A stretch of 64,000 nt of DNA from Spirochaetota bacterium (GTDB taxonomy: Bacteria > Spirochaetota > GWB1-36-13 > JAKPDD01). How positions within the stretch are numbered: the first letter of the stretch is position 1; each line of letters opens with the position of its first letter. A program made the translations under genes and the position numbers. The notes beneath the pieces were generated by a model, which had not been told where the DNA came from, did not search any database, and saw only the letters and a list, made by a program, of their open reading frames with translations. This document shows positions 30,882 through 38,263 of the stretch, in pieces. The stretch is from contig JAKPDD010000046.1 of the NCBI GenBank assembly GCA_029552945.1, forward strand, positions 8,366 to 72,365. Direction: 5' to 3'.

Positions 30882-31901
30882 ATGGGATTTAAAAGAATTG
30901 TATCTCTTTTTTTTATAATATTTTTTATTTCTACATTTATTCCAACATTTCTTGATGCAAGGAGAGGTGGCGGAGGTGGGGGGTTCTCAAGCAGGAGTTC
31001 ATCGAGTTCATCAAGGAGTTCATGGAGTTCATCAAGGAGTTCATGGAGTTCTTCTAGGCATTACTATGGTAGTTCTTCTGATGGTGGGCCTATAGGTATT
31101 ATTATAATGCTTATTCCAATAAGTGTATTTGCTTTTTTTAGTTTTAGGGATTATATAAGGAGATTTAGAGAAAATCCTAAAGAATATTGGCATAGATTAA
31201 AAAAAATACTTTTAAAAATTGTTCTTAATATCTCTATATTGTTTTTATCCTTATTTTTGATTGGAATTTTGGAGGCACTTCAAATTGATAATAAGATAGG
31301 TTCGGCAACACCTTTTATAATTATTGTCCTTATTTTAACTGTTTATCTTATGATTATTATTAACCGTAAAAAACCAAGTAGAAGCCTTGTAAGTTTTCAG
31401 TTTGGTTTTTATCTTGGAAAAGGTGCTCTTGTTGAAGAGATAAAAAATATAATTAAGAAAGCTGATATCAATAAAACAAGTTCTCTTTATAATATGTTTA
31501 GCAATATAGTTGATTTTGTGATAAAAAATAAGGAATCAATTAGATGGTTCAACTATTCTATTGAAAAGTATAGAAAAGATAATGAACTTGAGACTGCTTT
31601 TAATAAAAAAGAGTCAGAGGAAAGAGCAAAATATGATGTAGAAGAGGTGGTTAATATTAAAGGTAAAAAGGTTGAGGCTCCTGAAGATTCTAATAATCTT
31701 GAAGAAATATTTGTCTTAAGTATAATATTGGGAGTATTTGTCAGGATAGATTTTAGTGATAAAGGATTTGAGGATACATTAAGACTTTTGAAATACTGTA
31801 AAGATATTACTATAGATAATTTTGGAGGAGTTAGTGTCTGGTATAATATAATGGATAGAGAGGAACTTATTGAAACATATCCTGATATAAAGAGTGTGTA
31901 G
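30882..31901 (+). CDS. Membrane protein with an extracytoplasmic Gly/Ser/Arg/Trp low-complexity repeat.
   Basis: 339 aa. A signal/TM segment is followed by RRGGGGGGFSSRSSSSSSRSSWSSSRSSWSSSRHYYGSSSDGG, then 2-3 TM helices and a cytoplasmic domain of about 170 aa with no recognisable motifs. Confidence 0.4.
   Translation: MGFKRIVSLFFIIFFISTFIPTFLDARRGGGGGGFSSRSSSSSSRSSWSSSRSSWSSSRHYYGSSSDGGPIGIIIMLIPISVFAFFSFRDYIRRFRENPKEYWHRLKKILLKIVLNISILFLSLFLIGILEALQIDNKIGSATPFIIIVLILTVYLMIIINRKKPSRSLVSFQFGFYLGKGALVEEIKNIIKKADINKTSSLYNMFSNIVDFVIKNKESIRWFNYSIEKYRKDNELETAFNKKESEERAKYDVEEVVNIKGKKVEAPEDSNNLEEIFVLSIILGVFVRIDFSDKGFEDTLRLLKYCKDITIDNFGGVSVWYNIMDREELIETYPDIKSV
30992..31055 (+). repeat. 21-bp tandem repeat (agttcatcaaggagttcatgg, two full units plus partial flanking copies) encoding SSSRSSW repeats.
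   Basis: 31005-31025 is identical to 31026-31046. Partial copies lie immediately 5' and 3'. Confidence 0.7.
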
Positions 31902-32082: not shown

Positions 32083-33411
32083 ATGAGGAAAAATATAATT
32101 TTTGTTTTGTCGATAATAGTTCTTTTTTTATTATCCTGTAAGTCTTCTAAATCTAGTTCCCCTGTTTCTAGTATTGTAGAAGTTCCGAACGAGGTTTATA
32201 TAACTTCAAATGGTTATCCTCAAGACTTGAATAGTGCAAGGTCAAAGATAATTGGAAAGTGGATGTATGCAAATAATCAGTTTTTTGAGTTTAAAGCAGA
32301 TAAAACCTGGGAGTATTATATAAGTTATGATGGTGGTACAACAAAACTGGTTTATTACAATGGCTATTATGAGGTTTATGAGAATGTTGCAAAAACTGGT
32401 TTTTATTATCTTGCATTAAGTTATAATCAAATTGGTATAAGTAATTTAAATGAATTGTATGGTGACCCAACACCACATCTTTATAATTATGATCCTTATG
32501 GTATTGCTGATGTTCCTAAAAAAAGGTATCAGATAGTAGAGCTTTATGTTGATGATAATGTTTTTGGTATGAATATATATAGAAATACATCTGATAAATA
32601 TGATCTTTTATCAGGCTGGGTACATGCAAACTTTGACTTTTTTAACAATTACTGGACATATTCTACAATATTACTATCTACAACACAAACATATTTTGAA
32701 AATACAATGCTTGCTGAAATAAATTCTGATAAGAGTTTTGTACAGACTTGTTATACTGAAGTTTCAGGCGATTATGTAAATAACTGTACAACTGATCCTA
32801 ATAAAAGTAAGCTTAATAGTATTCTTACAACCTATGTTTCAGGTTATGGAGAGGATGAGCCACCTTCTACTATAACATCTAGTGTTTATAATGAGTATTT
32901 ATCATCAATTGATTCAAGTTTTGTTAATAATTGTTATTACCTTTATTCAGGCTTATATGTTCTTAAATCAAATCTTTCTGAATCTGATAATTCCAGGCTT
33001 GAAAGAATAATGCTTGGAAAACACTGGGATGGTGTATTCTGGGTAAATCTTACAAATAATTATGCTTATAAAGTAAATAGAGAGGGAACTTTAATTTTTA
33101 GAAATGATGGTAATGTAGAATATACACAGGTTTCTCCATATTTTACACAATCAACTTTACCGTCTGCTTTAGTTAGCCCTGTATTGAATGTTTTGCCTGC
33201 TACTTTGCCACCTACTCTTGATATTCAGACTGTTAACGGTACTTATTCTATTGTTACTGAAACACTTACTAACTCAAATGGGGATAATCTTGGAAAAAGA
33301 GTCTATCTTTCATGGGTTTCAGCTTCACCAATAATGGGGACTTTAAGGTTTGAAATATTGATAGTAAAAGATAAAAATATACTTATTACTTTCCCATTTT
33401 ACAGACAATGA
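32083..33411 (+). CDS. Hypothetical lipoprotein.
   Basis: 442 aa with a signal peptide and a Ser-rich linker after the Cys (LLSCKSSKSSSPVSS). It is rich in Tyr, Asn and Thr, typical of a secreted beta-rich protein. No recognisable domain. Confidence 0.4.
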   Translation: MRKNIIFVLSIIVLFLLSCKSSKSSSPVSSIVEVPNEVYITSNGYPQDLNSARSKIIGKWMYANNQFFEFKADKTWEYYISYDGGTTKLVYYNGYYEVYENVAKTGFYYLALSYNQIGISNLNELYGDPTPHLYNYDPYGIADVPKKRYQIVELYVDDNVFGMNIYRNTSDKYDLLSGWVHANFDFFNNYWTYSTILLSTTQTYFENTMLAEINSDKSFVQTCYTEVSGDYVNNCTTDPNKSKLNSILTTYVSGYGEDEPPSTITSSVYNEYLSSIDSSFVNNCYYLYSGLYVLKSNLSESDNSRLERIMLGKHWDGVFWVNLTNNYAYKVNREGTLIFRNDGNVEYTQVSPYFTQSTLPSALVSPVLNVLPATLPPTLDIQTVNGTYSIVTETLTNSNGDNLGKRVYLSWVSASPIMGTLRFEILIVKDKNILITFPFYRQ

Positions 33412-33513: not shown

Positions 33514-34653
33514 TTAGTCTCCTCCACCACAACTACTGCAAGAACTACAACTACTGCATGAGCTACAACTGCTACACGAGCTACAGCTGCTACACGAAGA
33601 ACAACTACTGCATGAAGAACATGTGCTTTTATTATTATCATCTTCATAATAATTGTCATCTCCTGAAGAACTGTAATTCAATGAACTGTCATATACCTCT
33701 TCTATTTTTTCATGATATTCATTATTCTGGTAAAAATTTAAGTCACTGTCTTTTGGAATCTCAAATTCTGCTCCATCGTTGAGTGTGTTGGAATCTTTGG
33801 CATAAAAACCTTTTTCACCTACATCCATAATATAATTACCGTAATCATCAATTAAAGTTATATTATTACAATATATATTGTTATCGTAACACATTGAACC
33901 CCAGATGAAACTGTACAATAAGTATTCATTTAGATAATTTGGAATAGAAATAGAAGATACCCCACCACCATACTTTATTTCACTTACATTTTTTATTTTT
34001 TCTTTTGGTCTTATTATATTTTTTCTTGTATCTATTTTTAGATTTTTTATACCCATAAACTTTTCTATTGTAATCGCTATATTATCTAAAAAGTTATGAA
34101 ATACTTTTTTCTTATATTCAACATACTGTTCATATTTTTCTTGGTTTTCAAATATTTTTTTCATTTTGTTTTTAATCTCTTCCCTTGTTTTACCATTAAA
34201 ATCCTTGAATATTGCATAAATATTAATTTTTATAGGATATTCTCTTATTTTATGTTCTCTATTTACTTTTATTTCCATAATATATTTTAATTCATTGTCT
34301 TCATGTTCGAGTGTCATAAGAATATATTTGAAAACTTCAGATTGTATACGGTCTATTTTTATTTCAAACTCTTCAATTGACTTATTAAGATCATTTGCAA
34401 TATTTTTATTATCAAAATAAACATTATTATTATCTAATTCAATTTTTATAACATTTGTAATGTTTAATGACCTTAGAGCCATCGACAATTGTTGGAGTAT
34501 AGATAATGCTGTAAATGTTTCATGCTCCTCTTTTTTTGATAAGCTTCCTAATACTAAAATATTAAGGATTTTACCAAAAACTTTTCTTGGGGGTACTCTT
34601 TTTATTGATTTTGCTTCTTTTGTATTTATAAATATTTTACCTTCCAGTATCAT
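33514..34653 (-). CDS. Cytoplasmic protein with a C-terminal (Cys-Ser-Ser)x10-Cys-GGGD tail. Candidate substrate of the adjacent radical SAM/SPASM enzyme.
   Basis: 379 aa with no signal peptide. About 340 aa of Lys/Glu/Asn-rich N-terminal domain are followed by an acidic stretch (SSGDDNYYEDDNNKST) and then CSSCSSCSSCSSCSSCSSCSSCSSCSSCSSCGGGD-stop. The gene lies 38 nt downstream of the rSAM gene on the same strand. Confidence 0.55.
   Translation of the reverse strand: MILEGKIFINTKEAKSIKRVPPRKVFGKILNILVLGSLSKKEEHETFTALSILQQLSMALRSLNITNVIKIELDNNNVYFDNKNIANDLNKSIEEFEIKIDRIQSEVFKYILMTLEHEDNELKYIMEIKVNREHKIREYPIKINIYAIFKDFNGKTREEIKNKMKKIFENQEKYEQYVEYKKKVFHNFLDNIAITIEKFMGIKNLKIDTRKNIIRPKEKIKNVSEIKYGGGVSSISIPNYLNEYLLYSFIWGSMCYDNNIYCNNITLIDDYGNYIMDVGEKGFYAKDSNTLNDGAEFEIPKDSDLNFYQNNEYHEKIEEVYDSSLNYSSSGDDNYYEDDNNKSTCSSCSSCSSCSSCSSCSSCSSCSSCSSCSSCGGGD
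33529..33621 (-). repeat. Degenerate 9/18-bp coding tandem repeat encoding (CSS)10C.
   Basis: 31 codons with strict TGY-AGY/TCN-AGY/TCN periodicity. The units differ at synonymous positions (e.g. acaactactgcaagaact, acaactactgcatgagct, acaactgctacacgagct). Confidence 0.8.
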
Positions 34654-34691
34654 TTTGGCCTCCTTTTTTATTTTAATAAAATAATATTTTT

Positions 34692-35759
34692 TTAAATAAA
34701 TCTATATTTTTTTAAAAACTTAAATGGTGATACTCCTTTTTTCTCCTGCATTTCAAATGTTTTTTTAACAAGTACACATTCTAATGATTTCCCTTTCATA
34801 TCACCCTCTTTATATCTGTCTACAGGGCAACCACTATTACATATAAATTGATATGGGCATTTATAACATTCTTTTGACTCGTAATAGTTTTTAAATAGAT
34901 TTTTTCTTTTTATAATAATATCACTTATACTTTCATTATACCAGTTTGCAAAGTTTCCATTTTCTGTAAATGTTTTATTGCAGCTATAACAGTAACCATC
35001 ACTGTCAAACTCTAACCAGAAACAGTCATTCCCGTTCTGAAAGCAATAACCTGGTGTGAATATCTGTGTTATATGAAAAAGGTTATATTTGTCAAGAAAG
35101 ATTGCAAACTCTTCCATCATACTATTGTCAAGTGATTCCTTGCCAGATGCAAATTTTATTTTTATTTTTTTTAAATTAGAATAATATTTTTTTTTGTCAA
35201 GTTCCTGGTGAATGTAATAATAAAAATCATTTAAATATTCTATTGTTTTTTTATTTACTACAGTAAGTATAGATATATTGAAGTTGTTATTTAAAGCATC
35301 TTTATAATTTTTATAAACTTTTTCAAAACTGTTATTTCTGTAATAATCATGGACTTGAGGAGGAAAATCAATACTTATACTTATATTAAAGTTTTCTTTA
35401 CTACTTAAAGTCTCAATTTCTTTTAAGTATTTAATATCAGTATTTAAACCATTTGTTTGCATACAGACTTTTTGATTTTTAATTTTGTTTTTTTCCCAGT
35501 GTTTTTTAATTATATTTATAATTTTTCCAAAATAGGCTGGTAAAATAAGAGATGGTTCACTACCATGAAATGTAAAACTATTTATTCTAAAACCTTCTTG
35601 CTCTATTTTTTTTATTAATGTTTCTATATTTTCAATAATTTCTTTGTCATCTTTTTTTCTTGATCTTTTAAATGATTCTGGGAGATAACAATATTTACAG
35701 AAAAGGTTACAGGTTTTGAAAGGTGCATAGTAGATGTTAATATTTTTGCAAATATTCAT
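34692..35759 (-). CDS. Radical SAM enzyme with C-terminal SPASM domain (peptide/protein-modifying radical SAM maturase family).
   Basis: 355 aa. It has an N-terminal CX3CX2C (C17-NLF-C21-KY-C24). The C-terminal auxiliary-cluster cysteines are GYCFQNGNDC...GYCYSC and the canonical SPASM motif CYKCPYQFICNSGC (CX2CX5CX3C). Confidence 0.85.
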   Translation of the reverse strand: MNICKNINIYYAPFKTCNLFCKYCYLPESFKRSRKKDDKEIIENIETLIKKIEQEGFRINSFTFHGSEPSLILPAYFGKIINIIKKHWEKNKIKNQKVCMQTNGLNTDIKYLKEIETLSSKENFNISISIDFPPQVHDYYRNNSFEKVYKNYKDALNNNFNISILTVVNKKTIEYLNDFYYYIHQELDKKKYYSNLKKIKIKFASGKESLDNSMMEEFAIFLDKYNLFHITQIFTPGYCFQNGNDCFWLEFDSDGYCYSCNKTFTENGNFANWYNESISDIIIKRKNLFKNYYESKECYKCPYQFICNSGCPVDRYKEGDMKGKSLECVLVKKTFEMQEKKGVSPFKFLKKYRFI

Positions 35760-35767
35760 TTTTTTAT

Positions 35768-36385
35768 TTATAACCAGAATGTAAAACCTATCATAAGGTT
35801 AATTAAATAACTGTTAAATTCATTATATCCTTCATATAATGGAGAGCCATCTTTATCCTTATTGAAGGAAAACCTTACTCCAGTATACATAATAATATCT
35901 TTAAAAAGTAAAAATCTATCTGATAGAGTAAGAGAGTAAAGCAATTTTTTAAACTTTATATTATAATCAGTTTTTTCATATACAAGGCTACTTGTAAAAG
36001 TATAATCTACACCTAAACTTATAATAAAAAAATTATCATAATGAGTGAGGAATGAAATTCCTACCAGAAAACCTGTGCTATATATTGACCTTTCGCCTTT
36101 ATCTGGGAAATAGTTATCGTAATAAGAATTAAGGCTTTTAGATATACCTGTAAGTTTTCCACTTTCAAAAAATAGTTCAAGGATTAGAGGTTTAAATAAC
36201 ATAGCTGTGTTTATACCAAATGATGCGTATGATTCTGTGTATCTGTTTGAATCTTTAAAAGCTAGTTTACTTTTGTAAGAAAAGTATGGTGTAAACATTA
36301 TTTTATTATCAATTATTGTTTTTGCAGAAATATAATTATGAAATATTAATAATAATGTTACAGTCAATAATAATTTTTTTTTCAA
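35768..36385 (-). CDS. Small outer-membrane beta-barrel protein (8-stranded OmpW/OmpA-like class).
   Basis: 205 aa with a signal peptide (MKKKLLLTVTLLLIFHNYISA), alternating amphipathic beta-strand pattern and a C-terminal ...IGFTFWL ending in an aromatic residue. It is 8 nt upstream of the rSAM gene on the same strand. Confidence 0.45.
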   Translation of the reverse strand: MKKKLLLTVTLLLIFHNYISAKTIIDNKIMFTPYFSYKSKLAFKDSNRYTESYASFGINTAMLFKPLILELFFESGKLTGISKSLNSYYDNYFPDKGERSIYSTGFLVGISFLTHYDNFFIISLGVDYTFTSSLVYEKTDYNIKFKKLLYSLTLSDRFLLFKDIIMYTGVRFSFNKDKDGSPLYEGYNEFNSYLINLMIGFTFWL

Positions 36386-36467: not shown

Positions 36468-37727
36468 ATGAAAAAAATATTTATATTTCTTGTATTGCTT
36501 CTATCTTATTATAGTTATTCCTACGTTTATGATCCTGGTGACTTGATTAATAGTGTTAAAAGATCACAGGTAATAACAGAGATGTTTATTAACAGATTTA
36601 GTGTTATGAGTTTGAGTATTGATTCTACTGCTCCTGAGGCTGTGAATTATAACCTTGTAAGGGGCTATTATTCTAATAATTTTGATTTATTTTTTAGTGG
36701 AGAAAGTGTTTTTGGTTTGCTTGTACCTACTCCTTTTGGTAATCAAGAAGCTACTTTATTTAGAGTTTTTGGTTCTATAATAGTGAAGTTTGATGAGATA
36801 TATGACTTTGGTCTATTTAAATGGGGTTTTGGTATAGGTATTGCAGGTTACAGGTATGGTATGTATAAGAGTATTGACCTTAATAGTAATAGCTTTGTTA
36901 ATAATGGTGGAGTTGATGAGGAGTCATTTAGTGTCAGGGATTATATATACTCTCAAATATTTGATGACCTTATTGTTATAACAAATATTATAAAACCATT
37001 AGGTTATTTTCATTTTGGTATTGTTATGAATAAAGAAATATTCCCTGGTATAGATGGAATAGTAGGTACAAAAGATGATACAGAGATAACATCAAAATCA
37101 AGACTCTTTCTAGATACAAATCTATTTGGTTTTATTCTTTCTTCAATTGGCTATAATTCTGAACTTGATAAAGCTGAATATGTTACTGTTAAAATAGAGA
37201 CTATGAGTATTTTATCTTTATTTATTGATAAGGAAAGATATCTTCTCCCCGATTTATACTTAGGTTATTCATATATTAATCCATCTTTTAAAGATTTTAA
37301 CTTTAATAATACAATTAATACTGGTATTGTTCAGTGTTTTTATAATTTTGGAAACAATATTTATATAAAAAGTTTTATTGAGTTTTTTATTTCTGGAAAA
37401 AATGAATCAGAATCTATTTTCCGTCAAGGATTGATTGAGTTTGGAATAGGTATTTATATGCTTAATAATAATAACAATAATTTTAATACCTATTTTATAT
37501 TTGGACTAAGTAGTTTTTCAAGTTATAGACTCAAGAGCTTTGGTTCCAGTTCAACAGATACTATTGGTTGGTTGGGTGGTATTAAAATTGATTTTGGTTT
37601 TGATGGTAATAATATGGGAGGTAGTTTATTACTTACTATTTCTGAAAATTATTCAGAGAAAATTGCATACCTTGTAGAGTCTTATGACCATCTTATTTTT
37701 GAACTTAAATTACAATTTGGTTTTTAA
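36468..37727 (+). CDS. Hypothetical secreted protein, probably an outer-membrane beta-barrel.
   Basis: 419 aa with a signal peptide. It is Gly/Tyr/Phe-rich, and its C-terminus ...FELKLQFGF ends in Phe. Confidence 0.35.
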   Translation: MKKIFIFLVLLLSYYSYSYVYDPGDLINSVKRSQVITEMFINRFSVMSLSIDSTAPEAVNYNLVRGYYSNNFDLFFSGESVFGLLVPTPFGNQEATLFRVFGSIIVKFDEIYDFGLFKWGFGIGIAGYRYGMYKSIDLNSNSFVNNGGVDEESFSVRDYIYSQIFDDLIVITNIIKPLGYFHFGIVMNKEIFPGIDGIVGTKDDTEITSKSRLFLDTNLFGFILSSIGYNSELDKAEYVTVKIETMSILSLFIDKERYLLPDLYLGYSYINPSFKDFNFNNTINTGIVQCFYNFGNNIYIKSFIEFFISGKNESESIFRQGLIEFGIGIYMLNNNNNNFNTYFIFGLSSFSSYRLKSFGSSSTDTIGWLGGIKIDFGFDGNNMGGSLLLTISENYSEKIAYLVESYDHLIFELKLQFGF

Positions 37728-37738
37728 AGGAGTTTTAT

Positions 37739-38263
37739 ATGAAAAGGATATTATTTATCTTTATTTTACTGTTTTTCTTAATTGGATGTTCAAGAATACT
37801 TGATCTTTTATGGAATCCTAATCAGGCTGAATTTAATATATATTCACAAAGTAATGTTACAGGACAGATTAGAGTTACATTCAATGAATCTTATCATTCT
37901 GATGTGAGATGTTATGACTGTAATTCGAATGACTCCTATTTCTGGGGTTATTATATATATAGAAATAGTTCAGGGCCATATGATGACTTTACACTTATAG
38001 GAATTGACTCAAGAGAAAAATTGACAGTTATTAAAGACACTTACGATTATTATCATTGGGGTTATGTTGAGGTCCATGGTAGTAGTGTAACAGATCCGGA
38101 TCCAAATGGCCCTGGGGTCTTTATTGACACATGTACAAGTGGTGTTACATATTATTATAGAGTTGTTGTTGTATATAGGTCCTGGGATAAAAAAAATAAT
38201 GAATGGGAAAGTGATATAGAGAGTAAGGCAGCAAGCAGCTGGACTGCAAGTTTATGTAAGTAA
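37739..38263 (+). CDS. Hypothetical lipoprotein (beta-sandwich/FN3-like).
   Basis: 174 aa with lipobox FLIGCSR. YYYRVVVVYRSWD looks like a beta-sandwich strand. It has 5 additional Cys residues (CYDCNSND, DTCTSG, SLCK). Confidence 0.4.
   Translation: MKRILFIFILLFFLIGCSRILDLLWNPNQAEFNIYSQSNVTGQIRVTFNESYHSDVRCYDCNSNDSYFWGYYIYRNSSGPYDDFTLIGIDSREKLTVIKDTYDYYHWGYVEVHGSSVTDPDPNGPGVFIDTCTSGVTYYYRVVVVYRSWDKKNNEWESDIESKAASSWTASLCK

Follow-up and report, generated by a model that had tools for sequence, protein, structure and literature searches.

A radical SAM/SPASM enzyme subfamily encoded beside an unannotated protein family with a C-terminal cysteine-repeat tail

Introduction

The locus described here raises the question whether a radical SAM enzyme acts on the repetitive, cysteine-rich end of the protein which is encoded directly behind it. 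It lies in a stretch of 64 kb from a Spirochaetota MAG, which was analysed as a whole and is called the window in the following. Radical SAM/SPASM enzymes are a main source of new peptide chemistry, and the current discovery pipelines rely on RRE domains and short precursors. A compendium of 15,108 enzymes was restricted to those associated with an RRE (PMC10288494). A subfamily that lacks an RRE, and whose candidate substrate is a folded protein of 330-450 aa, is therefore missed by such searches.

Results

Gene order in the window

The features of the locus are the following.

35768-36385, minus strand: 205-aa ORF with a TTG start, N-terminus MKKKLLLTVTLLLIFHNYISA
34692-35759, minus strand: radical SAM/SPASM enzyme ("c2" subfamily), 355 aa, PF04055 and TIGR04085
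34659-34665, minus strand: Shine-Dalgarno sequence AAGGAGG, 5 nt before the c0 ATG, read from the sequence
33514-34653, minus strand: "c0" family protein, 379 aa, with folded N-domain, acidic disordered linker and Cys-repeat tail
33517-33621, minus strand: C-terminal tail (CSS)10-C-GGGD, the part on which the radical SAM enzyme is proposed to act

All elements named in a preliminary description of this DNA were found again at these positions, namely the ORFs, the two motifs of the enzyme (CX3CX2C and SPASM) and the tail (CSS)10-C-GGGD. The ORFs are separated by 8 nt (205-aa ORF and enzyme) and 38 nt (enzyme and c0), and the strong Shine-Dalgarno sequence of c0 sits within the latter spacer. 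The 205-aa ORF had been labelled as an outer membrane (OM) beta-barrel and was taken as a possible sign of export or surface association. The label could not be upheld beyond a signal-peptide-like N-terminus, as Pfam, NCBIfam and PDB searches revealed zero matches. A homologue is found in none of 80 related loci, so that an export role cannot be inferred from this gene, which is lineage-specific and stands outside the system.

The radical SAM/SPASM enzyme

The 355-aa protein contains the motifs C17-x3-C21-x2-C24 and C298-x2-C301-x5-C307-x3-C311. It scores above the cut-offs of both PF04055, which defines the radical SAM superfamily (67 bits, cut-off 29.5), and the SPASM model TIGR04085 (36.1 bits, cut-off 27). 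The closest relative of solved structure is the anaerobic sulfatase-maturating enzyme anSME (PDB 4K36; E 6e-19, residues 15-323), to which the profile aligns in full length, and the initial radical SAM/SPASM assignment is thereby confirmed. Across 15 orthologues the cysteines of the CX3CX2C cluster are invariant, as are the SPASM cysteines C239, C246, C260, C298, C301, C307, C311 and C328, while C257 is nearly so; these nine SPASM cysteines align with the auxiliary-cluster cysteines of anSME. A C-terminal extension with 7-8 Cys, the ligands of two auxiliary 4Fe-4S clusters, and with a CX2CX5CX3C motif is characteristic of the SPASM subgroup (TIGR04085/PF13186). Homologues score with 302-361 bits, a single one with 180 bits (31% identity), and all others with 66 bits or less. 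By these scores the enzyme represents a discrete radical SAM/SPASM subfamily. The subfamily is previously undescribed and has anSME as nearest relative.

An N-terminal RRE was found neither in the enzyme nor in its orthologues, as judged from the position of the radical SAM motif and from the neighbouring ORFs. The motif begins at residue 17 in all of them, which leaves no room for such a domain. A separately encoded PqqD-like small ORF is not conserved beside the gene pair either.

The c0 family

The neighbouring 379-aa protein has at least 136 homologues with E-values down to 6e-92, all of them unannotated. They originate from Ignavibacteriota/Kapabacteria, Bacteroidota, Latescibacterota, Gemmatimonadota, Myxococcota, SAR324 and Spirochaetota and comprise 326-455 aa (326-385 aa among the database homologues). 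An alignment (A1) of the window protein with 24 homologues, which covers the sequences from end to end at 30-43% identity, defines the family, here referred to as c0. Judged from the homologues, c0 is a large unannotated family and not an oddity of the window.

The N-domain motifs MYFxGxLxIDPSQ, ETFTAxSILQQ, LVLEHxD and RxHxVGEYPI are present in the window protein; G36, E43, D81, D88, E116, H117, H134 and W251 are invariant in the family. No Pfam family could be assigned to the protein, the PDB contains no sequence match, Foldseek gave no significant match, and by eye no signal peptide is visible at the N-terminus. In the AF2 model (pLDDT 80.8, pTM 0.77) the N-domain is folded up to about residue 330 and is followed by an acidic disordered linker; residues 330-379, including the tail, are disordered, and the tail should thus be accessible. 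An early suggestion that this locus matures a protein and does not produce a small RiPP peptide agrees with the folded, autonomously conserved N-domain and with the RRE-less enzyme.

The cysteine-repeat tail

The window protein ends with ...SSSGDDNYYEDDNNKST-(CSS)10-C-GGGD-stop. When all six frames of the window are read, its (Cxx)10C motif (33529-33621) is the sole (Cxx)≥3C run. The codons are mixed (TCN and AGY for Ser, TGT and TGC for Cys), and TRF detects an 18-nt period with a match of only 81%, which indicates that the periodicity is maintained in the protein and did not arise by recent slippage of the DNA.

The (CSS)10 repeat does not stand alone. Nearly all c0 proteins carry tails of the type ...SSCSSCSSCGGCGGD with 2-9 Cys, so that the window tail is an expanded copy of the family-wide signature SSCSSCSSCGGC..D. 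At least two Cys within the last 45 residues are found in 119 of 120 database homologues. The 11 Cys of the window tail are the maximum seen, compared with 3-9 in these 120 homologues and two in some loci. The minimal tails consist of a single CxxC (...ACGACD in L103 and ...SSCGGCGD in L028), and two-Cys tails occur also among those c0 proteins which are encoded beside the enzyme. The last Cys is always located 1-5 residues from the C-terminus, and the end is usually Asp; C-G-G-G-D of the window corresponds to CX3D.

It was too strong to state that the repeat is no known RiPP core motif, because Cys-Xaa-Xaa repeats are the hallmark of heterocycloanthracins (PMC2674419). The only NCBIfam match of c0 is a weak one of its tail to the heterocycloanthracin model TIGR03601 (21.6 bits, E 2.6e-4), below the cut-off of 35. 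A heterocycloanthracin/sonorensin assignment was rejected, as no locus cluster contains a YcaO-type neighbour.

Conserved pairing of enzyme and c0

The c0 gene lies directly 3' of the enzyme gene in 30 of 31 informative loci anchored on the enzyme. These 30 pairs comprise 15 genome loci, the window, ten metagenome loci and four further contigs. In the exceptional locus, L092, no c0 gene follows the enzyme orthologue within about 750 bp downstream. The adjacency of a radical SAM enzyme and a Cys-tail protein, for which a search of other genomes had been proposed, is thus conserved. The genes flanking the pair vary between loci, and apart from the pair the window has no neighbour in common with any of the 80 related loci. 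In the window, L103 and L104 the pair persists at 37-47% identity with wholly changed flanks. Enzyme and c0 co-diverge (r = 0.85, Mantel 0/2000) up to a sequence distance of 65%, and the enzyme subfamily is found almost only beside c0. The functional link between enzyme and repeat-tail protein, previously assumed from the window, is supported by this comparison of sequences as well as by the joint loss of tail and partner described below.

A second partner gene, c1

According to the preliminary description, a wide occurrence of the repeat protein without an adjacent radical SAM gene would refute a system. Such a gene is indeed missing next to c0 in 65 of 81 loci, yet in 49 of these 65 (about 60% of the c0 loci) its upstream position is taken by c1, a small helical protein of the Pfam family PF27765 (UCP032817-like) which is unrelated to the radical SAM enzyme. 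The tail is therefore linked to a partner, though not specifically to the radical SAM enzyme.

All 66 partner-bearing loci (49 with c1, 16 with the radical SAM enzyme and one with another radical SAM enzyme) encode a c0 with Cys tail. Nine c0 proteins are tail-less; they belong to five separate lineages of the NJ tree, and none of them has a partner. As they retain every invariant residue of the N-domain, the partner appears to track the tail and not the N-domain. Tail-bearing c0 proteins without any adjacent partner are encoded in L008, L012, L018, L045 and L057. Overall, a link between partner and tail is supported by these patterns of occurrence.

PF27765 is large, with about 13,000 representative clusters. 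Its residues H73, E74, C86, H95, H96 and C143 are invariant in c1. Cys-repeat tails are also found in cis, namely in 19 of 54 long c1-domain members compared to 5 of 349 internal windows, and 86 of 119 stand-alone c1 proteins end in CxxC. In L105 a CDF cation-efflux gene overlaps the start of c1 and belongs to the same operon as c1 and c0. The one remaining partner is found in L042 from Myxococcota, where a second, unrelated radical SAM/SPASM enzyme is encoded directly downstream of a c0 nested among the c1-type c0 proteins.

Discussion

A proposed tail maturase

We lean towards the view that the radical SAM/SPASM enzyme serves specifically to mature the adjacent 379-aa c0 protein, and that it most likely modifies the tail chemically. 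This view is based on the enzyme class, the exclusive pairing, the discrete subfamily and the co-divergence, and furthermore on the coupling of tail and partner, the accessible tail and the c1 proteins with Cys tails in cis. The independent radical SAM/SPASM enzyme beside c0 in L042 and the resemblance of the RRE-less enzyme to the protein-acting anSME point in the same direction. From the observed class, pairing and co-occurrence we infer both the tail as substrate and the nature of the chemistry, for which PapB provides a precedent: it forms links between Cys and either a downstream Asp/Glu or the carboxylate at the C-terminus (PMC12373016).

In the proposed mechanism the folded N-domain would have its own function and would hold out a C-terminal arm, disordered and acidic, that ends in Cys-x-x repeats. 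SAM would be cleaved reductively at the CX3CX2C cluster, and the 5'-deoxyadenosyl radical would take a hydrogen atom from a tail residue, while the two SPASM auxiliary clusters would aid the covalent modification. The most likely products would be thioether cross-links from Cys, formed either with carbons of adjacent Ser residues or, in the manner of PapB, with the conserved C-terminal Asp/carboxylate; an anSME-like oxidation of Cys/Ser would be the second option. The product would remain on the protein, which would mean maturation in the sense of anSME or QhpD, with no peptide being exported. Across most other lineages c1 presumably serves the tail analogously from the same operon position.

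Several observations speak against a maturase. An invariant Asn stands at the position of the catalytic Asp277 of anSME. The reaction cannot be predicted from the likeness to anSME, as is illustrated by DarE (PMC10288494). The 65 c0 loci without the enzyme indicate that the upkeep of the tail needs no radical SAM enzyme, and the five partnerless tails and the enzyme without nearby c0 in L092 have to be considered as well. Any two neighbouring genes that are inherited vertically would be expected to co-diverge. Two-Cys CxxC tails would be no less typical of a metal or redox site, and one c1-c0 operon includes the CDF gene.

Alternative functions of the tail

The last two points would fit to a tail that stays unmodified and acts as a metal-binding, Fe-S-binding or redox (poly-CxxC) module, with the radical SAM enzyme or c1 as functional partners which use it, e.g. 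for the delivery of metal, sulfur or electrons. Overlapping CxxC motifs are classic metal and redox ligands, and a single CxxC is what the minimal tails contain and what most stand-alone c1 proteins end with; the invariant His, Glu and Cys residues of c1 are also in agreement with this explanation. We nevertheless regard it as rather unlikely. It is difficult to see why a dedicated and exclusively co-occurring radical SAM/SPASM subfamily should do no more than use the tail, and the nearest enzymes (anSME, DynA, CteB) act covalently on peptides or proteins. Moreover, metal-homeostasis genes are not generally conserved near c0, and metal binding does not need a strict position 1-5 residues from the C-terminus.

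An enzyme acting on a small molecule, on the c0 N-domain or on a ligand of this domain, with an irrelevant tail and an adjacency that reflects a shared pathway only, seems improbable to us. SPASM enzymes are not all peptide modifiers, since AhbD and NirJ act on tetrapyrroles, and the invariant Glu, His and Asp residues of the N-domain may form an active or binding site. But these very residues are retained in the tail-less c0 proteins, which have lost the partner, and c1-domain proteins bear a similar tail in cis without any c0 N-domain.

It is very improbable that the locus makes a classical RiPP, with the tail as a core peptide that would be released from a 340-aa leader after modification and then exported, aided by the OM barrel. 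A radical SAM gene beside a Cys-rich C-terminus does resemble sacti- and ranthipeptide clusters, and the weak likeness of the tail to heterocycloanthracin cores could be read in the same way. However, a protease, an ABC exporter or an RRE is conserved in none of the more than 100 loci, a YcaO/cyclodehydratase is absent nearby, and the OM-barrel gene is confined to the window among the related loci. As a precursor peptide c0 is too long, and the supposed leader is a confidently folded domain that persists in tail-less members. That the adjacency is meaningless inherited synteny can be practically dismissed: one broad clade (Ignavibacteria/Kapabacteria-like MAGs) does supply most enzyme-type loci, many of which have a downstream Band_7 and an upstream Dtd gene in common, but the pair outlasts wholly changed flanks, the subfamily hardly occurs elsewhere, and tail and partner were lost together five times.

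Two partners for one tail

A broader and quite tentative idea, which we consider doubtful at present, is that the Cys-x-x...(Gly-Gly-Asp) tail is a widespread unrecognised appendage matured by two unrelated and interchangeable enzymes. The oxygen-sensitive radical SAM/SPASM enzyme would be used in mostly anaerobic lineages (Ignavibacteria/Kapabacteria and the Spirochaetota MAG), and elsewhere the His/Glu/Cys-bearing c1 would work on c0 in trans or on a tail of its own in cis. The pair of anSME and FGE, which both serve formylglycine formation, would be the parallel. Should this hold, PF27765 would turn out to be a new and very large family of enzymes that modify Cys tails, and the tail in its modified form would be a new cofactor or cross-linked structure derived from a protein.

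In any case, the comparative data yield a clean and directly testable candidate pair of enzyme and substrate, which is tied to the much larger PF27765 domain, itself linked repeatedly to Cys-repeat tails at the C-terminus, be it in cis or in trans. Solving the fate of the tail would explain what two large families of "hypothetical proteins" do in many bacterial phyla, and could reveal a new protein cross-link or cofactor or else a new metal/redox appendage.

Comparison with known systems

The best match of the window enzyme in NCBIfam as well as among PDB sequences is anSME. Like anSME/AtsB (4K36) it consists of a radical SAM core and a full SPASM domain with two auxiliary clusters and has no N-terminal RRE, and like anSME, which modifies Cys/Ser of a whole protein and not of a leader-bearing peptide, it is proposed to act on a protein. 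It is not an anSME equivalog, as TIGR03942 scores 94.9 bits with a cut-off of 349.45 and the match covers the core only (16-189). In contrast to anSME, C276-D277 of 4K36 aligns with C260-N261 in the HMMER alignment, N261 being invariant in 15 sequences, and the partner c0 belongs to a different protein family. Neither the window nor any of more than 100 loci has a sulfatase gene among the neighbouring genes, and the tail lacks the sulfatase motif C/S-x-P/A-x-R.

PapB and the SCIFF maturase CteB are also SPASM radical SAM enzymes encoded beside a Cys-rich C-terminal target, and the position of the last Cys and the usual Asp end of c0 are reminiscent of PapB substrates. Unlike in those systems there is no RRE, no protease and no exporter, and the candidate substrate is a folded protein of 326-455 aa instead of a short leader-core peptide. 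The models of sacti- and ranthipeptide maturases remain far below their cut-offs (PapB NF047865 47.3 of 340 bits, SCIFF TIGR03974 30.1 of 425, SkfB 27.9 of 300).

In the maturation of quinohemoprotein amine dehydrogenase (QhpD-QhpC system), the SPASM radical SAM enzyme QhpD forms Cys-to-Asp/Glu thioethers within a subunit that stays in the functional protein, and the same logic is proposed for the enzyme and c0. Nevertheless, c0 is unrelated to QhpC and QHNDH genes are absent; amine-dehydrogenase genes are not found nearby, and QhpD is not among the best 25 of 36 NCBIfam matches of the enzyme.

Heterocycloanthracin and other TOMM precursors share the C-terminal Cys-x-x runs. Differences are that these precursors are short and secreted, that no dehydrogenase is encoded near c0, and that the maturase class is another one.

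ACGX-repeat and SbtM-type enzymes are radical SAM/SPASM proteins tied to Cys-repeat peptides, and their models are closest to the L042 enzyme, which reaches 231 bits on TIGR04340 (cut-off 400) and 177 bits on TIGR04082 (cut-off 350) and thus stays below both. Its weak matches include also the AhbD and NirJ models. The likeness to the ACGX/SbtM group is limited to this one locus, and the window enzyme comes from a different lineage.

The locus and its repeat tail

The ORF listing returned three minus-strand ORFs with exactly the coordinates of the preliminary description, separated by spacers of 8 nt and 38 nt:

35768-36385, minus strand, 205-aa ORF of the signal-peptide type (ORF listing)
34692-35759, minus strand, radical SAM/SPASM enzyme of 355 aa, here called rSAM (ORF listing, Pfam, NCBIfam)
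33514-34653, minus strand, repeat protein of 379 aa, here called c0, as is its family (ORF listing)

The c0 gene is preceded by a strong ribosome-binding site (AAGGAGG), and its product ends in ...GDDNYYEDDNNKST(CSS)10CGGGD; all six frames of the whole window contain no second (Cxx)n run. The serine codons of the (CSS)10 stretch are a mixture of TCN and AGY, and its DNA forms an 18-nt repeat with merely 81% match, so that the periodicity of the tail is kept at the protein level. Identical copies of the locus are present on 18 metagenome contigs. A promoter and terminator scan of this region of 24-29% GC was uninformative (35 promoter-like sites versus 26 expected, no terminator), and PADLOC matched no defence system among the three window proteins or c1, a small helical protein found upstream of c0 at many other loci.

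The radical SAM enzyme

The enzyme contains the motifs C17x3C21x2C24 and C298x2C301x5C307x3C311. Its assignment as a radical SAM/SPASM protein, originally made from these motifs, is borne out by the HMM scores, which are 67 bits against a threshold of 29.5 for Pfam Radical_SAM and 36.1 bits against a cut-off of 27 for the SPASM model TIGR04085. The cluster cysteines and nine more, aligned with the Aux I/Aux II ligands of anSME, are common to 15 orthologues. The profile aligns over its full length with the anSME of C. perfringens (4K36, E 6e-19) and more weakly with CteB (5WGG), and in its N-terminal part with ChlB (9gm3, E 3.5e-13). None of the NCBIfam equivalog cut-offs is reached (anSME 95/349, DynA 93/450, PapB 47/340). 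An identity as anSME was rejected on account of the score of 95 versus 349 bits, the replacement of the catalytic Asp277 by an invariant Asn in this subfamily, and the absence of both a sulfatase gene and the sulfatase motif. Since the radical SAM motif begins already at residue 17, the protein is evidently devoid of an RRE; in this it is comparable to the protein-acting anSME, while typical RiPP maturases differ. As DarE illustrates, closeness of sequence to anSME is no guide to chemistry (PMC10288494).

The rSAM profile revealed 14 metagenome loci, ten of which carry a Cys-tailed c0 directly downstream; three were left out of the pairing count as too short or too distant. At L092 (45% identity) the place of c0 is taken by a 167-aa signal-peptide protein. 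In four further contigs, reached by way of protein homologues, a tailed c0 comes after rSAM in every case, with varying flanks (Dtd/Band_7, an ABC transporter, Lon, an Na/H exchanger). The pairing of the enzyme with a Cys-tailed c0 is thus conserved in other genomes, in 30 of 31 informative cases and with differing flanks. In a database of 5.8 billion proteins the homologues score 302-361 bits, one reaches 180 bits (31% identity), and all others, among which the anSMEs start, have at most 66 bits. This gap together with the 30/31 pairing identifies rSAM, at the level of sequence, as a discrete subfamily nearly confined to the neighbourhood of c0. The pairwise distances of the two proteins correlate with r = 0.85 (28 pairs, Mantel test, 0/2000 permutations).

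L092 (279-1846) is the only close rSAM orthologue without c0 next to it; the neighbouring 167-aa protein has a WCGDS motif and possibly a thioredoxin fold. A radical SAM/SPASM homologue of 387 aa and 30% identity is encoded on two short contigs (L096:1511-2539 and L097:97-1260). Its upstream neighbours are a 314-aa ORF, putatively phage-like by eye, and, close by, an 82-aa ORF that contains Cys; in the short flank of this homologue c0 was not seen.

The c0 family

Among 5.8 billion proteins searched there were at least 136 c0 homologues of 270-407 aa, mostly 340-385 aa, with E values down to 6e-92; none carries an informative name or has a Pfam domain. They stem, among others, from Bacteroidota (Tenacibaculum, Aquimarina, Fluviicola, Roseivirga), SAR324 and unclassified bacteria. 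The same type of tail (...SSCSSCSSCGGCGGD and variants, 3-9 Cys) closes 119 of the 120 homologues inspected; the last Cys always lies 1-5 residues before the end, and the terminal residue is mostly Asp. With its 11 Cys the tail of the window protein is the longest seen in the family. The idea of a unique motif therefore needs correction, as from these sequences (CSS)10 is an expanded version of a family signature.

In the family alignment an N-terminal region with the conserved motifs MYFxGxLxIDPSQ, ETFTAxSILQQ, LVLEHxD and RxHxVGEYPI is followed by an acidic low-complexity linker, usually with SW(F/L)D, and then by the tail. The linker of the window protein is without a motif of this type and has NYYEDDNN in its place. 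In the AlphaFold2 model residues 1-330 are folded with confidence (pLDDT 80.8, pTM 0.77) and residues 330-379 are disordered. Neither Foldseek (E > 0.1, TM < 0.2) nor a sequence search found a relative in the PDB.

Genes beside c0

The gene directly upstream of and co-directional with c0 was classified after clustering of the ORFs from 80 genome loci of many phyla. At 15 of these, as well as in the window, it is an rSAM orthologue (37-46% identical to the window enzyme), with gaps to c0 of -7 to +38 nt if three larger apparent overlaps are omitted, in which the ORF caller had stretched c0 to an upstream start. At 49 loci it is c1, here of 133-187 aa. An adjacent partner is absent in 15 of the remaining 16. 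At the sixteenth, L042 (Myxococcota), the partner is a different radical SAM/SPASM enzyme directly downstream of c0 (+15 nt), and its nearest models, ACGX-system with 231 bits and SbtM with 177 bits, both stay below cut-off. At L105 (1593-4125) there is a 4-nt overlap between a CDF cation-efflux gene (PF01545/ZT_dimer) and the start of c1, with c0 next in line; the arrangement looks like a three-gene operon.

All 66 c0 loci with a partner have the Cys tail. Nine c0 proteins are without any Cys tail (L013, L015, L022, L040, L044, L061, L062, L064, L074), and not one of them has an adjacent c1 or rSAM. In a neighbour-joining tree of the N-domains the tail-less proteins represent five separate lineages, two of which are nested in the rSAM-type clade; the rSAM-type proteins form a single clade, in which the window protein branches deepest. 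Of the invariant N-domain residues the tail-less proteins keep all but T46, replaced by Asn in three of them. As they do so without a partner, we conclude from these comparisons that the N-domain has a function of its own and that tail and partner constitute an accessory module, gained or lost jointly. Eight of the nine (all except L015) retain an SW(F/L)D-type linker motif, sometimes degenerate (EWLD, DWF), and end acidic/aromatic (...DIDF, ...DMDY, ...GDDW, ...GDWF).

In five c0 proteins (L008, L012, L018, L045, L057) the tail is present and an adjacent partner absent. One MAG (CAZWLN01) encodes two Cys-tailed paralogues, L012 and L030, with rSAM only beside the latter, which makes an action of the enzyme in trans plausible.

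The alternative partner c1

The precomputed Pfam label of c1 is PF27765, 'UCP032817-like'; our copies of Pfam and NCBIfam, which do not contain PF27765, gave no match. In the library searched, no relevant literature was found on the tail motif, PF27765, UCP032817 or TIGR04222. The domain is all-helical in its model and has no relative of solved structure. Invariant residues are D69, W72, H73, E74, C86, H95, H96 and C143. Searched with a profile, 1.84 billion representatives yielded 12,958 members of this family. Among 173 sequences examined, 86 of the 119 stand-alone proteins end in CxxC, and 19 of the 54 longer c1-domain proteins have a C-terminal Cys-repeat tail of their own (for example ...GGGDCGGGGCGGGGCGGD, ...DSCSSCSSCGD, ...GCSSSCGGGCGGGD), compared with 5 of 349 internal windows. 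As far as sequences can tell, these own tails tie the domain to the Cys-repeat tail in cis, and the adjacency of c1 and c0 does so in trans. The position of c1 is taken by rSAM in one c0 clade and by a second radical SAM/SPASM lineage in L042, and it looks as if the tail-directed partner was swapped by non-orthologous replacement.

The c1 motif D-x-x-W-H-E-x-I-L-x-T-x-x-Y-x-x-x-C may resemble plant DUF1399/GRDP, and the tails may resemble TIGR04222-type proteins; for neither resemblance was there a Pfam or NCBIfam match even at E <= 1.

Possible function of the tail

Systems in which a radical SAM/SPASM enzyme is encoded beside its substrate are known already. New are the enzyme subfamily and the breadth of the c0 family, a candidate substrate class of folded 330-450-aa proteins with a terminal Cys-x-x tail, and the interchange of rSAM with the large uncharacterised PF27765 family.

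On balance we slightly favour a covalent modification of c0 by rSAM in its disordered C-terminal Cys tail, with a product that remains attached to the protein. The core of the preliminary description, an enzyme acting on the repeat tail, is backed by comparative genomics, and its chemical part stays conjectural. From the general behaviour of SPASM enzymes on Cys-rich targets and the precedent of PapB, thioether formation would be the most plausible chemistry. PapB joins Cys to Asp/Glu or to the C-terminal carboxylate (PMC12373016). A linkage of this kind would fit the terminal position and the frequent final Asp of the c0 tail; in the window C-G-G-G-D corresponds to CX3D.

The main rival, to which we give a rather low probability, sees in the tail a poly-CxxC module of metal, Fe-S or redox type, which the partners use unmodified. 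In its favour are the existence of minimal CxxC tails, the CxxC and the His/Glu residues of c1 itself, and the operon with the CDF transporter, which at this single locus hints at a metal connection of the tail. Lesser rivals to a modification of the tail by rSAM are that the enzyme acts on a different substrate, or that c0 is a classical exported RiPP. An adjacency of rSAM and c0 that is meaningless synteny is likewise a lesser rival. Evidence speaks against all three, in the case of synteny the pairing under differing flanks.

Neighbouring genes and related tails

The 205-aa ORF had been described as an outer membrane beta-barrel that perhaps aids export. Like the 419-, 174-, 442-, 339- and 196-aa ORFs of the window, it has no homologue in the 80 c0 loci (tblastn), and searches of Pfam, NCBIfam and the PDB gave no match that would bear out a barrel fold. 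It was therefore rejected as a component of the system, leaving the export idea unsupported, and the candidate barrel gene is by this comparison a lineage-specific neighbour. The N-termini of three plus-strand ORFs around the pair (32083-33411, 442 aa; 36468-37727, 419 aa; 37739-38263, 174 aa) resemble signal or lipoprotein sequences. These ORFs belong to no significant Pfam/NCBIfam family (sub-threshold matches only for the 174-aa protein), have no homologues at related loci, and look like lineage-specific envelope proteins. The ORF at 30882-31901 (plus strand) encodes a DUF1517 protein (PF07466, 39.8 bits) with the low-complexity stretch RRGGGGGGFSSRSSSSSSRSSWSSSRSSWSSSRHYYGSSS past a signal-like N-terminus; in other genomes it has no connection with the c0 system.

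C-terminal Gly/Ser-Cys repeat tails of their own, ending in GGD, GGS or GGE, are carried by the longer PF27765 proteins P0141-P0144, P0176, P0202, P0221, P0231, P0257, P0277, P0283, P0286, P0289, P0291 and P0294, of which P0141-P0144 possess an N-terminal membrane helix in addition. P0214, P0256 and P0292 of the same family end in acidic C-x3-C repeats.
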